Below, piece after piece: positions 195 through 62,800 of a DNA stretch of 64,000 nt. Positions within the stretch are counted from its first letter, which is position 1. Each line of letters begins with the position of its first letter. Under the pieces are notes generated by a model. The model did no database searches and was not told the origin of the DNA. It worked only from the letters and a program-made list of their open reading frames with translations. The stretch comes from Eledone cirrhosa. Lineage: Eukaryota. The position numbers were made by a program, and so were the translations under genes. The DNA is taken from contig OZ024752.1 of the NCBI GenBank assembly GCA_964016885.1, positions 32,488,001 through 32,552,000 on the forward strand. The letters are read 5' to 3'.

Positions 195-400
195 TTAGTT
201 ATGTAATAAACAATATAAGATAATTATTTCATTTACCGGTGGTTTCTTGAAGGCAGATGATGTGTCTGTCTTCAGTCGTCAGTGAATAAATAACATATTT
301 ATTTATTCATTCTGACGACTGAAGATAGACACATCATCTGCATTCAAGAAACCACTGGTAAATGAAATAATTATCTTATATTGTTTATTACATGACTAAA
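195..400. mobile_element. Fold-back (palindromic) element between (TA)n tracts, carrying a hammerhead ribozyme on each strand
   Basis: Left arm ttagttatgtaataaacaatataagataattatttcatttaccggtggtttc... is the imperfect reverse complement of the right arm ...gaaaccactggtaaatgaaataattatcttatattgtttattacatgactaa; centre near 293. Confidence 0.8.
306..366 (+). ncRNA. Type-I hammerhead ribozyme motif
   Basis: TTCATT-CTGACGA-c-TGAA...TTCA-a-GAAA-CC(act)GG-TA-AATGAA: 6-bp stem I, intact core, GUA site, C.A mismatch at the base of stem II. A mirror copy lies on the minus strand at about 228-284. Confidence 0.75.
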
Positions 401-413
401 TATATATATATAT

Positions 414-514
414 AGAGAGAGAGAGAGAGAGAGAGAGAGAGAGAGAGAGAGAGAGAGAGAGAGAGAGAGAGAGAGAGAGAGAGAGAGAGAGAGAGAGAGA
501 GAGAGAGAGAGAGA
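414..514. repeat. (GA)n microsatellite
   Basis: Pure AG dinucleotide run. Confidence 0.95.
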
Positions 515-1018
515 AATATATATATATATGTATATATATACACACATAGACATACTCGTACATAGACACACATTTATATGTAGATTTGTTTTTGTGTATG
601 TACATGTGTGTGCGCGTGCGTGTGTGTGTTAATGCCTCTAATAATAATCATGATTACCAAAACCTATCTATTCCTCTATCATAATAAATAAGTCATGAAC
701 CTTTTGCTCAATATAATTTATTATATGTCTCTTTGCCGACCACAAACTAAGCCATTTAACCAATTTTATCCTCATGAATCATCATCATACCCGTTGACCA
801 GTCTTCGGTAATCACAAACAAACATGGCTTCCTTCTTCTTCCTTACACACTCACCAATAATCACGTGCTATTTTCGATTCTCATAAATGTTTGCAATCTT
901 TAAAATCTTTACAATTTCACACACGTTGTATTTACTTGGTATTAAATAAACATATTTGTGTATATCTCTCCCTCTCCCTCTCTTATATATATATATATAT
1001 ATATATATATATATATAT

Positions 1019-1181
1019 AGATGAGATTCTACAGGACTAGAACTGTTTCATTCTTGAGAAGTCATCAGGAATGAAGCAGTTCTAGGTCCTGTAGAATCTC
1101 ATCTATATTAAAACTTTTATACTCTGCAATGTATTGAGTACCTTACTTACTGTGGTTACCTCTGATTCAACCCGGAATAAC
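1019..1181. mobile_element. HHR-bearing (TA)n-embedded repeat family A (other copies at 8957-9138, 25941-26070, 37268-37320)
   Basis: Shared sequence gagattctacaggactagaactgtttcattc...tcatcag, with tail ...gtattgagtaccttacttactgtggttacctctgattcaacccggaataac in three copies. Each copy abuts (TA)n and three show a partial inverted repeat. Confidence 0.8.
1027..1071 (-). ncRNA. Minimal type-I hammerhead ribozyme motif (family A)
   Basis: Minus strand reads TTC-CTGATGA-c-TTC(tcaa)GAA-t-GAAA-CAG(ttctagtc)CTG-TA-GAA. Confidence 0.7.
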
Positions 1182-1182
1182 G

Positions 1183-2588
1183 TATATATATATATATATA
1201 TATATATATATATATATATATATATATATATATATATATATATATATATATATATATTATATTATATTATATATATTATATATATATATATATTATATAT
1301 ATATATATATATTATATATATATATATATATATATATATATATATATATTATATATATATATATTATATATTATATATATATTATATATATTATATATAT
1401 ATATATTATATATATATATATTATATATATATATTATATATATATATTATATATATATTATATATATATATATTATATATATATATTATATATATATATA
1501 TTATATATATATATTATATATATATATATTATATATATATATATTATATATATATATATATTATATATATATTATATATATATTATATATATATTATATA
1601 TATATATATTATATATATATATATTATATATATATTATATATATATATATTATATATATATATATTATATATATATATATTATATATATATATATATATT
1701 ATATATATATATTATATATATATATATTATATATATATATTATATATATATATATTATATATATATATATTATATATATATATATTATATATATATATAT
1801 TATATATATATATATTATATATATATATATTATATATATATATTATATATATATATTATATATATATATTATATATATATATTATATATATATATTATAT
1901 ATATATATATTATATATATATATTATATATATATATTATATATATATATTATATATATATATATTATATATATATATATTATATATATATATATATATAT
2001 ATATTATAATATATATATTATATATATATATATATATTATATATATATATATATTATATATATATATATTATATATATATATATTATATATATATATATT
2101 ATATATATATTATATATATATATATTATATATATATATATTATATATATATATATTATATATATATATATTATATATATATATATTATATATATATATAT
2201 ATTATATATATATTATATATATATTATATATATATATTATATATATATATATTATATATATTATATATATATATATATATATATTATATATATATATTAT
2301 ATATATATATATTATATATATATATATTATATATATATATATTATATATATATTATATATATATATATTATATATATATTATATATATATTATATATATA
2401 TTATATATATATATTATATATATATATATATATATATATATTATATATATATTATATATATATTATATATTATATATATATATATATTATATATATATAT
2501 ATATTATATATATATTATATATTATATATATATTATATATATTATATATTATATATATATTATATATATATATATATATATATATATA
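1183..2588. repeat. Long degenerate (TA)n / TATTA array
   Basis: About 1.4 kb consisting only of T and A. Confidence 0.95.
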
Positions 2589-2765
2589 ACAAAGAAGGTG
2601 TGGTAAGGAACCAGGTGGACCATAGCGCACCAGAGTACTCGATACTTAGGGTAGTAGAGTGGGTAAAAGCAAAAGAGTCAGGACCCCGACGGCTGAGCTC
2701 CGGCCGTTTCGACAGCTAGATCCTAACTGTTAGGATCTAGCTGTCGAAGTCCCGACTCTTTTCCT
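2589..2765 (-). mobile_element. Repeat family B with the 3' half of a hammerhead and a terminal fold-back (other copies at 16408-16600, 27270-27380, 27396-27590)
   Basis: Shared ggtgtggtaaggaaccaggtggaccat...gaccccgacggc...gccgtttcgac. Minus strand gives GAAA-CGGC(nnGAGCTCn)GCCG-TC-GGGG. Perfect hairpin at 2708-2748. Adjacent to (TA)n. Confidence 0.7.
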
Positions 2766-60519: not shown

Positions 60520-60900
60520 AGGGGAGGAGTTGGACAGAGAGACAGACAGTGAGGGGAGGAGTTGGAGAGACAGACAGAGACAGACAGAGAATGGAGGAGT
60601 TGGAGGGATAGACAGAGACAGAAAGAGTGAGGGGGGGAGAAGGTGAATAGAAAGAAAGAGACAGAGAGAGTGAGGGGAGACGGGAGAAGATGAATAGAAA
60701 GAAAGAGACAGAGAGAGTGAGGGGAGAGAGGAGAAGATGAATAGAAAGAAAGAGACAGAGAGAGTGAGGGGAGAGGAGAAGGTGAATAGAAAGAAAGAGA
60801 CAGAGTGAGGGGAGGGAGAAGGTGAATAGAAAGACAGACATAGAGAGAGTGAGGGGAGGGAGAAGGTGAATAGAAAGACAGACATAGAGAGAGTGAGGGG
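60520..60900. repeat. ~40-bp purine-rich minisatellite
   Basis: gagtgaggggag...gaaggtgaatagaaagaaagagaca units. Confidence 0.88.
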
Positions 60901-60943
60901 AGTTTAAGTAAAAGAAAGAGATAGAGCCATATAGACAAATGGA

Positions 60944-61824
60944 GTTTCTACTTTGGGCACAAGGCCAGCAAATACCCCCAGTGCATTACTGGTACTTTAT
61001 TTTATCGACCCCGTAAGGATGAACGGCAAAGTCGACCTCGGCGGGATTTGAACTCAGAACACAAAGGGCCATAACTATGCAGCAAAGCATAGTGTCTGAC
61101 GCTCTACCGATCCTGTTGTCAAACCACCGCACTTAGAGCGAGTTGTTTTCTGTTGTACTTCTAACAGACAACATAATGGTTTTTGATTTAAGCACAAGGC
61201 CAGCAATTTGAAGAGGGGAAAGTCGATTAAATCGACCTCAGTGCATTACTGCTACTTTATTTTATCGACCCCGTAAGGATGAAAGGCAAAGTTAACCTCG
61301 ACGGGATTTGAGCTCAGTCTATAAAGGGGCGTAACTATGCTGCAAAGCATGGCGTTTGATCACCGCCCTTCTGACAACGTAATGCCAATGAATGACGACT
61401 GGACTCAGAGGGAGTTTTCAATAGTCGCTGAAACTGTTAGAAATAGTAGCTAAATCGTCCTTGAATCATACCCTAGAATCTTAAATAACCATTTCATTTT
61501 GTCTTCTTTTTCTTTTTTTTTTTTTTCTTCTTTGAATATTATGAAATGTGATCATAAACAAGTGTGTGAGTGAATGAATGAATGAGTGTGTGAATGAATG
61601 AGTGTGTGAATGAATGAGTGTGTGAATGAATGAGTGCGTGAATGAATGAGTGCGTGAATGAATGAGTGCGTGAATGAATGAGTGCGTGAATGAATGAGCG
61701 TGTGAATGAGTAAGTGAGTATAACTCTCTCTCTCTCATATCTATCTCTCTCTCTATATATATATATAATTGTTTCTACTTTAGGCACAAGGCCAGCAATA
61801 ACCCAGTTCATTACTGGTACTTTA
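60944..61824 (-). mobile_element. SINE copies at 60944-61130, 61175-61365 and 61768-61824
   Basis: Consensus match on the minus strand. Confidence 0.88.
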
Positions 61825-61972
61825 TATATATAATGTTATATAGTAAGGTGTATTATTGGTTGTGTCCATACGGTCCAATAAATTGTTGTTACCAATATTA
61901 AGTTCTCCACGCTTTTGTATATCTCCAATTCCATTTATGGGAACAGCTAGATGATGTAAAACGGAGTATTTG

Positions 61973-62293
61973 TATCAAAATAAAGATCCGAAGGCATGGT
62001 ATAAATTTCCAATCATTTTAATCACGACACATGTTTCAATAAGAGATAGATCGATCGTGTAGCCATGATCGATTATCACTGATCTCGTCAGGTGAAAATG
62101 AATTGTCTTCAAATCCTTGATATGAGGGAGAAAATTAATGATGTTCACTCACAGAGTTTAGTCCCTCATTTTCACCTGACGAGATCAGTGATAATCGATC
62201 ATGGCTACACGATCGATCTATCATTTATTGAAACGTGTCGTGATTAAAATGATTGGAAATTTATACCATGCCTTCGGATCTTTATTTTGATAT
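61973..62293. mobile_element. Fold-back element with ~128-bp arms, each containing a complete hammerhead
   Basis: Arms at 61973-62101 and 62166-62293; (TA)n follows. Confidence 0.85.
62173..62242 (+). ncRNA. Type-I hammerhead with a long stem II (mirror on the minus strand at 62023-62094)
   Basis: CAC-CTGACGA-GAT-cag-TGATA-ATCGATC-(atggctacac)-GATCGAT-c-TATCA-ttt-ATT-GAAA-CgtG-TC-GTG; GUC site. Confidence 0.8.
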
Positions 62294-62741
62294 ATATATA
62301 TATATATATATATATATATAAATCCGTATCTACTTACTCGCAGGACTCTTTAACTTGCTGTGTAACAGTTTAACTTTCTCATGGTTTTGTATCTATTTTC
62401 TGCTATGTTCTTGTGAACCATTCCTTATTGTCAAACTTTTTATAGCCTAAGATATTAGTTACTACTTCAACATATTTTCTTGACCAAATGCCACCTGTTG
62501 ATAACTCAGGTATCCTCTTCGTAGTTTTACCAACTTTCCTATCTCTGAAAGCTTTCATGCGTTATGTCCTTGAGCAAGACACTTTATTTCACGTTGCTCC
62601 TTCTACCTGGAGTTGCGACCGATAGAGAGTAGTAGCAATTGTAAAGACCAACCTTATATATATATATATATATATATATATATATATATATATATACAAT
62701 GATATTAAATAAATGGAAACTATATTTATAAAACCATATTT

Positions 62742-62800
62742 ATTCTATTATATATATTTCAAGGGTACCAAAACTTTGGTACGCTCTCATCAGATAAAAT
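62742..62800 (-). ncRNA. Type-I hammerhead
   Basis: ATTTTAT-CTGATGA-GAG-c-GTACCAAA(gt)TTTGGTAC-c-CTT-GAAA-TATATA-TA-ATAGAAT: 7-bp stem I, palindromic stem III, aataaa directly after. Confidence 0.75.

Follow-up and report, generated by a model that had tools for sequence, protein, structure and literature searches.

Hydra-clade Penelope-like elements (PLEs), as defined in the accessible text of Craig et al. 2021 (PMC8557442), insert into (TA)n and carry canonical hammerhead ribozymes, and the accessible part of the supplement describes an octopus member, Hydra-1_Obim of Octopus bimaculoides, with a hammerhead and a (TA)n preference. In the accessible part of Cervera & de la Pena 2014 (PMC4209133), dispersed single and inverted PLE hammerheads were attributed to truncated copies. 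Transcription of Penelope starts within the upstream pseudo-long terminal repeat (pLTR), according to the available portion of PMC2377424, and retrozymes have been argued to be PLE derivatives in the available portion of Li, Clavereau & Pollet 2026 (bioRxiv 10.64898/2026.07.22.740005). How PLEs form their pLTRs, tails, and inverted copies, and which role the hammerhead plays, is an open question in the works cited here. Here, we analyzed a microsatellite-rich stretch of 64,000 nt from Eledone cirrhosa (contig OZ024752.1, positions 32,488,001 to 32,552,000; "the window"), in which an earlier note had claimed about 20 hammerhead motifs in (TA)n-embedded short elements. We consider it probable that these motifs are the hammerhead-bearing pLTRs of many PLE families plus a few relatives without an open reading frame (ORF), present in (TA)n microsatellites as short and often head-to-head copies, and that the shortest of these are likely run-off products. 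The element class is known; the window holds new members, whose scale and end statistics are worth following.

A hammerhead motif or its remains were present at all 20 coordinates. Positions below refer to C3 of the core with the strand appended, whereas the minus-strand numbers of the earlier note mark the 3' part of the motif. A strict type-I descriptor (exact CUGANGA, stem I ≥ 4, stem II ≥ 3, and stem III ≥ 1 plus A-U) retrieved seven motifs from the window versus 0.01–0.02 expected from 200 dinucleotide shuffles, so the shuffles do not match the counts. Core plus stem II alone gave 16 versus 0.5–0.9 in dinucleotide shuffles, and a variant permitting a long stem II gave 8 versus 0.28 (100 shuffles); a descriptor demanding 10.1–11.1 pairing passed over most families. 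Eight of the 20 motifs are complete, i.e., with an intact core and a stem I of at least 4 bp, which applies to 312+, 1068-, 62091-, 62176+, and 62793- by descriptor and to 24958-, 26763+, and 36994+ by inspection (with fold support only for 26763+). The claim that the stems pair does not hold for every copy; in eight others (282-, 8820-, 9002-, 26021+, 26177-, 32784+, 38063+, and 48992-) the core is intact while stem I or the cleavage triplet is short or broken, and in the last four (27247-, 34757-, 37316-, and 44254-) CUGANGA is mutated or cut. Three motifs had been missed, i.e., 33353+ and 37548-, both complete, and the decayed 16689-. Altogether, ten complete window copies show CUGANGA, GAAA, and NUH in order, three helices, and an open helix I, which 12 damaged copies do not. 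Rather than roughly ten unrelated elements, the motifs form about 13 families, several of which are sister subfamilies or have tails in common. Three further CTGANGA sites (10056+, 22613+, and 24041+) had no further copies in the fetched loci and were left out of the counts.

The same data bear on a reading of the motifs as chance matches in AT-rich, palindrome-rich DNA or as locus-specific host regulatory ribozymes. Motif 8820- would suit it, being incomplete and single-copy (its sole match in a genome search was itself), as would an Rfam scan of the window, in which no hammerhead family and only sub-threshold microRNA-like matches appeared among the best 150 of 232 matches, although this outcome carries little information. 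The shuffle controls, the spread of multi-copy families over many chromosomes, and the stem covariation described below contradict it, and 12 of the 20 window copies are decayed, as neutral insertions would be. We regard this reading as barely credible; chance is refuted for all motifs but 8820-, which is either a decayed remnant or a chance match.

For comparison with the rest of the 3.0-Gb assembly, we drew an unselected sample of twenty 10-kb stretches and twelve 50-kb blocks at round coordinates. The strict descriptor found 13 motifs in the former (shuffles ~0.4) and 78 in the latter (shuffles ~2). Excluding two blocks that flank the window leaves 76 strict motifs per 700 kb of unselected DNA, which extrapolates to ~3.2 × 10⁵ strict motifs per genome (block bootstrap 2.3–3.9 × 10⁵), an estimate that undercounts families whose stem II has mismatches close to its base. 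Because unselected DNA is about equally dense, there is no window-wide system, as had been proposed; the proposed density of one motif per 3 kb holds with broken motifs counted, while complete ones occur about once per 6–9 kb. First-look genome searches returned ~1,200–2,600 candidates each for F1, F2, F3, F6, F7, F14, and F15 (40 scored each), and 42, all old, for F11. The accessible part of PMC4209133 gives minimal-motif counts in the thousands (~2,000 in S. mansoni, ~4,000 in coelacanth, and ~9,000 in Xenopus), compared with ~3 × 10⁵ estimated here, with differing descriptors; up to 120,000 retrozymes, again by other descriptors, have been counted in axolotl. The accessible part of PMC13282606 mentions neither ribozymes nor hammerheads.

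Stem covariation was found across subfamilies. Both sides were changed at 14 of 21 pairs in the F2 group (6.4 in shuffles; reached in 0 of 500) and at 10 of 25 pairs in the F7 group (4.0; 0 of 500), as well as at 2 of 13 in F1, and slid-register controls stayed far below the observed values. The alignments were collected mainly by shared tails, and these counts are inflated by relatedness and by row filtering: three of the 14 F2 rows are descriptor matches, and the near-intact-core filter on all rows favors pairing, which counts against our interpretation. When 12 motifs were folded, 26763+ (F15) adopted the full three-way fold as a monomer (z −3.1); the others gave mostly partial or alternative folds, with z above −2 in 9 of the 12. 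Of the 91 strict motifs of the unselected sample, 39 have a perfectly palindromic helix III, a feature described in the accessible part of PMC4209133 as a dimer signature. Judged by sequence and pairing, the hammerhead motifs are real type-I motifs, and the complete ones are candidate self-cleaving ribozymes.

To the 5' side, longer copies of several families contain reverse transcriptase (RT) and GIY-YIG ORFs, and the pointer of the earlier note to (TA)n insertion, fold-backs, PLEs, and retrozymes was right. Thirteen of the 20 motifs belong to families whose longer copies carry such a PLE ORF, mostly of the Hydra clade and two of Neptune type. A genome search for GIY-YIG gave 10,596 candidates, of which 150 were scored; the long frames among them encode RT and/or a C-terminal GIY-YIG, and Neptune and Poseidon ORFs match RVT_1 and/or GIY-YIG in Pfam. 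Two full-length elements lie in unselected DNA, i.e., an F1 element (G000:C6:50.0145-50.021 Mb; repeat distance 5.5 kb) and an F5 element (G000:C5:90.0415-90.0466 Mb; 3.9 kb, with an open frame of 819 aa), both laid out as (TA)n, inverted truncated pLTR, pLTR plus tail, ORF, long untranslated region (UTR), pLTR, and (TA)n. A search locus supplied an F6 copy of 4.5 kb with direct pLTRs around its ORF (G000:C28:96.058-96.063 Mb). RT and C-terminal GIY-YIG thus share one ORF, as in endonuclease-bearing PLEs, in F5 and in the frameshifted F1 and F6, whose PLE identity comes from motifs and tblastn. Hammerhead-bearing direct pLTRs enclose the ORF, with an inverted copy in F1 and F5, and an optional tail stands on one end only; tails in this genome measure 60–145 nt and are longer than the 30–40 bp described for PLEs. 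The F2 copy at 62793- has its own endonuclease 1252 bp upstream, and the F4 and F9 sisters, F8, F10, F12, the 16689- copy, and the palindrome at 35640-36070 are also linked to endonuclease sequence. Mixed (TG)n/(TA)n repeats make up more than 2 kb of the 3' UTR in the F1 full-length copy (L192-L193); with them, this element may itself distribute fresh microsatellite targets.

The Hydra motifs RW[K/R/T], SDKT, CxCx5C, CxxC, and CxH occur in the F1, F5, and F6 proteins, with RWK replaced by RWT or RWR in F5 and F1, and the F2, F8, and F9 fragments contain the Hydra linker and C-terminal motifs. Insertion is into (TA)n. Repeat-to-repeat sizes of 3.9, 4.5, and 5.5 kb exceed 3 kb because of the long UTRs; a size below 3 kb is a tendency and no strict criterion in the accessible text of PMC8557442. 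An early assignment of the ORFs to Nematis was dropped, as the Hydra definition in that text fits instead. By motifs, tblastn, and 14 unnamed homologues, the F5 element is provisionally classified as a Hydra-clade PLE. The F10 locus has a Zn-finger-like Cys linker, as do the ORFs to which 35640-36070 is linked, and the F12 copy is truncated below the linker. On the basis of clade motifs, F10, F12, and 35640-36070 are presumably of Neptune type. As a separate observation, two Neptune-type families (35640-36070 and the 3' UTRs of L031-L058) keep stem II, a palindromic CCGG, and GUA while their cores are degenerate, which on sequence grounds suggests loss of the ribozyme in a family that is still near 99% identical.

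A minority of the window motifs is retrozyme-like. F15 is an ORF-less unit of 625 bp, of which a trimer was found, and F3 an ORF-less unit of 830 bp found as dimers; their longest ATG frames are 65 and 99 aa. Both thus show what is described for non-LTR retrozymes, i.e., ORF-less tandem units with one type-I hammerhead each, and for F14 we infer such a unit of ~2.3 kb, a size estimated from two overlapping copies. Further ORF-less tandem arrays with one hammerhead per unit comprise five 466-bp copies (L176 block, G000:C3:250,040,400-250,042,500) and two 459-bp copies (L082:6900-7800). The motifs could accordingly be mainly independent non-coding retrozymes that self-cleave, circularize, and amplify as short units, in keeping with these tandem arrays, with the monomeric fold of F15, and with 63 of the 76 unselected strict motifs having no PLE coding match within 3.5 kb upstream. 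We consider this improbable. The description of the population as mostly non-coding fits such single copies but not the families, since coding PLE families account for 13 of the 20 window motifs, and ORF-less units for only two (plus the missed 37548-). In addition, short F1 copies lack the upstream TATA box, and copies that start at the cleavage site number 3 of 70 versus 5.2 expected, i.e., no excess in a weak test confounded by subfamily divergence; this absence is consistent with uncleaved templates.

We then consider how the many short copies arise, for which their ends are informative. In 15 of the 20 window motifs, (TA)≥6 follows within 300 nt (2000 random draws: mean 3.5, maximum 9), and (TA)n follows 69 of the 91 strict motifs versus 23.7 expected. 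AATAAA or ATTAAA, said to follow many motifs, lies within 260 nt in 12 of the 20, in some cases beyond the element, and this count has no control. F1, F2, F5, F6, F7, and F14 have two clusters of 3' ends, short and long, both in (TA)n. We found 21 head-to-head pairs; both ends reach a microsatellite in 18 of them, with a difference of over 40 nt between the two ends in 15 of the 18. Of the 14 modal 3' ends, which were picked by eye, nine abut at least 3 nt of TA-phase template (9.5% expected), which suggests microhomology priming. Regarding 5' edges, 26 of 31 incidental full-core F1 copies begin at −8 to 0 from C3, ~30 nt below a TATA box; this box, at −36, was seen in four loci from different subfamilies, in one of them as the variant CATAAATA. 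In one Neptune family, 6 of 14 copies begin at −45 to −35 with TATA at −75, while 7 of 13 F2 copies begin at −80 to −64 (peak near −77) and 8 of 19 F5 copies at −74 to −67 (peak near −70). A non-templated G was looked at as a cap signature in three F1 copies; two of these can be read as a short inverted CCAG, and the signature is not claimed.

From these ends, the short copies are likely run-off cDNAs from internal initiation. By analogy with in vitro results for PAc, a Poseidon element of the anole (Frangieh et al. 2024, accessible part of PMC11167929), the GIY-YIG endonuclease would cut a (TA)n run in both strands. From each DNA 3' end, reverse transcription would then start at either of two internal positions immediately below the hammerhead, probably with the aid of 2–7 nt of TA-like template. 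Priming on the 3' pLTR would give variably truncated or full copies, and priming inside the 5' pLTR of the RNA a product of 50–250 nt running off the RNA 5' end. Two cDNAs would then join head to head via microhomology, so that the resulting fold-back has a long arm and a short one. Inserted copies would derive from uncleaved RNA, the ORF-less units (625 bp, 830 bp, and ~2.3 kb) would be mobilized in trans, the ribozyme would be under selection in active lineages, and dimers would be required in lineages whose helix III is palindromic. That the genome holds ~300,000 intact motifs, a number that per base is well above every count in the works cited, because PLEs routinely make a strong-stop-like product (RT start below the ribozyme of the 5' repeat, run-off at the capped end, and both (TA)n ends primed at different start sites) is an explanation we advance tentatively and put at somewhat less than an even chance. 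If it is true, the short fold-backs would be a genome-wide fossil map of the transcription and RT start sites of each family, the strong-stop-like step would seed pLTRs and ORF-less retrozymes, and the F1 ribozyme would be the first 45 nt of the mRNA, so that cleavage would decap it. A literature search, with subscription journals and Repbase outside its scope, returned neither a run-off reading of short PLE copies nor an octopus hammerhead count.

The same elements might instead produce short copies and fold-backs by ordinary 5' truncation, with a stall at the ribozyme or another structure followed by self-priming or a template switch. The F1 edge coincides with the 5' base of stem I, the family of 16689- peaks at −5 to −4, junctions carry short microhomology, and self-priming at inverted junctions has been proposed (PMC3846280). 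Edges at −45 (Neptune), −57 to −65, −70, and −77, however, lie well above stem I, TATA spacing is matched in two families, and the copies of an abundant half-hammerhead family have their 5' ends within stem II; all 116 distinct copies of this family in the fetched loci lack CUGANGA over the 130 nt above GAAA. Run-off at the transcription start explains the edges away from the ribozyme, and stalling explains F1 equally well; as an account of the whole, truncation appears possible but rather unlikely.

Several points weigh against our preferred reading, i.e., PLE pLTRs with run-off short copies. Five of the 20 motifs (three of F7, as well as F11 and 8820-) are not tied to any ORF. A single F7 locus is joined head to head with a decayed Hydra ORF, a suggestive link on sequence grounds, and its low-complexity-filtered UTRs did not align; an F7 direct pair of 3.2 kb considered as an element turned out to be a local duplication, and the F7 tail pattern gave two matches, both ending in a microsatellite. 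The F4 and F9 links run through sister subfamilies, those of F8, F10, and F12 come from one locus each, and the F5 ORF has no RT or GIY-YIG match in Pfam and no PDB match. As for the ends, TATA spacing predicts a transcription start in no more than two families; in F2, F5, F7, and others, the edges have no TATA box 30 nt above, and the 5' edges of F3 and F14 are broad. In F1, the predicted start and the base of stem I fall together, and a stall at the ribozyme would account for this edge equally well. Several apparent 5' edges can be subfamily divergence from a single reference copy. Finally, initiation without target homology is reported for PAc in the accessible part of PMC11167929, whereas 3' ends here often abut TA-like template.

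Table 1. Hammerhead-bearing and related features of the window (core positions refer to C3).
Feature	Positions	Strand	Observations
F4 head-to-head fold-back between (TA)n runs	129..400	.	Cores 282- (long tail, stem I lost at junction) and 312+ (complete, short end); sister subfamily (locus L018) with Hydra-type endonuclease ~965 bp upstream
F1 fold-back	1020..1182	-	Core 1068-; copy begins 4 nt above C3
Core and stem II only	8760..8830	-	8820-; no stem III, triplet, or stem I in register
F1 sister subfamily, fold-back	8957..9140	-	Core 9002-; stem I broken, partner arm decayed
5'-truncated PLE	16625..16949	-	Last endonuclease codons 16949-16878; decayed hammerhead 16689-; 69% identity over 323 bp to L070
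F8, partial copy	24730-24772		Opposes the 24801..24967 copy across a (TA)n run
F8	24801..24967	-	Complete hammerhead, core 24958-; stem II ~90 nt; endonuclease 478 bp upstream in L134/L287
F1 fold-back	25940..26069	+	Core 26021+; stem I 3 bp
F9	26084..26255	-	Core 26177-; stem I mismatched; sister copies with endonuclease 1.3 and 1.5 kb upstream (two loci with alignable UTRs)
F15	26753..27086	+	Complete hammerhead, core 26763+; ORF-less 625-bp tandem unit, retrozyme-like
F7, branched stem II	27113..27264	-	Core 27247-; G8 to C, family copies CUGACGA
F12, Neptune-type PLE 3' end	32225..32903	+	Core 32784+; long stem III; canonical cleavage triplet not in register; 78% identity over 691 bp to a copy beginning inside the endonuclease
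F5, Hydra-clade PLE 3' UTR and pLTR	32942..33445	+	Complete hammerhead, core 33353+; 96.8% identity over 504 bp to full-length element
F7 sister, fold-back (extent approximate)	34650..34858	-	Core 34757-; C3 to U
Neptune-type PLE 3' end, fold-back	35640..36070	.	Core near 35916+ hammerhead-like but degenerate; arms unequal (one long, one short); 99% identity to L095 UTR
F14	36879..37241	+	Complete hammerhead, core 36994+
F1 copy cut off at C3	37263..37316	-	Joined to 3' end of the F3 copy
F3	37317..37573	-	Core 37548-, hammerhead complete; unit of 830 bp without ORF, arranged in tandem at L149 and L152
F11, old (73-90% identity)	38040..38150	+	Core 38063+; triplet GCC, without stem I; not adjoining (TA)n
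F7 sister, partial copy	44021-44097		Opposes 44116..44270 across (TA)n
F7 sister	44116..44270	-	Core 44254-; U4 to C
F10, Neptune-type PLE 3' end	48929..49010	-	Core 48992-; long stem III, stem I 3 bp
F6 fold-back	61834..62290	.	Complete hammerheads 62091- (long tail) and 62176+ (short end)
F2	62697..64000	-	Complete hammerhead, core 62793-; 1.25-kb 3' UTR; own broken Hydra-type ORF at ~64046-65100 (window numbering), just past the window edge

Besides the features of Table 1, the window contains several other repeats. The half-hammerhead family mentioned above consists of abundant fold-backs flanked by TA that contain GAAA, GUC, and a long helix III; its window copies lie at 2589-2760, 16400-16610, and 27264-27590, and its parent element was not found. 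Long near-perfect palindromes without a recognizable hammerhead core lie at 36101-36590, with 210-bp arms between (TA)n runs, and at 16109-16310, and are possibly further PLE ends or miniature inverted-repeat transposable elements. Different families are stacked in one (TA)n run at 37263-37573, L349, and L095, often inserted at the tail of another, and thereby build multi-element clusters. A repeat of ~190 bp resembling short interspersed nuclear elements (85–96% identity) occurs at dozens of window sites (e.g., 23226-23612 and 45031-45605), occasionally as 194-bp tandems. Three fragments, 4998-5390 (-), 31534-31911 (+), and 42621-43289 (+), represent one non-LTR retroelement C-terminus, which we take to resemble CRE-type elements; 4998-5390 has no Pfam match. 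At 26236-26817 (-), there is a 3' fragment of what is presumably an RTE-like long interspersed nuclear element, with a weak match to DUF6451 (E 0.0024).

The genome offers young families (96–100% identity), intact ORFs (F5), and thousands of countable short-copy ends, so the model of run-off and two-site priming is directly testable. Short palindromes with TA flanks receive microRNA-like hairpin scores; in annotation, they are best masked as PLE ends.

Among known systems, the elements resemble the Hydra clade of PMC8557442 (accessible text) in the C-terminal endonuclease, the RWK-like, DKT, CxCx5C, and CxxC/CxH motifs, the canonical hammerhead at the 3' end, the insertion into (TA)n, and the partial tandems, in which the upstream copy is inverted and a tail is borne on one side. 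That text gives one octopus Hydra family, of 2.5 kb and with no pLTR seen, whereas E. cirrhosa holds no fewer than seven Hydra-type lineages. These have complete pLTRs, measure 3.9–5.5 kb per unit, vary in their long stem II inserts, and have each left thousands of short copies; the likeness to Hydra-1_Obim is one of description, not of ORF alignment. The minimal hammerheads in the accessible part of PMC4209133 share the inverted pairs 100–700 bp apart, the palindromic helix III, and the high variety within a genome, but most motifs here keep a helix III of 2–3 bp and many are without the G10.1-C11.1 pair. PAc belongs to a different clade, and the available text of PMC11167929, which does not discuss genomic run-off copies, reports features that are also proposed here, i.e., an optional tail set by two internal RT start sites, cutting and extension of both strands of AT-rich DNA, and uncleaved RNA as template. 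With non-LTR retrozymes, as described in the accessible parts of PMC7229834 and bioRxiv 10.64898/2026.07.22.740005, F3 and F15 have in common the ORF-less tandem unit with one type-I hammerhead; at 625 and 830 bp (F14 ~2.3 kb), however, they exceed the usual 150–450 bp, and they end in (TA)n. Like those retrozymes, F3 and F15 coexist with autonomous PLEs in the genome, and this coexistence of coding elements with ORF-less tandem units bears on the origin of retrozymes.

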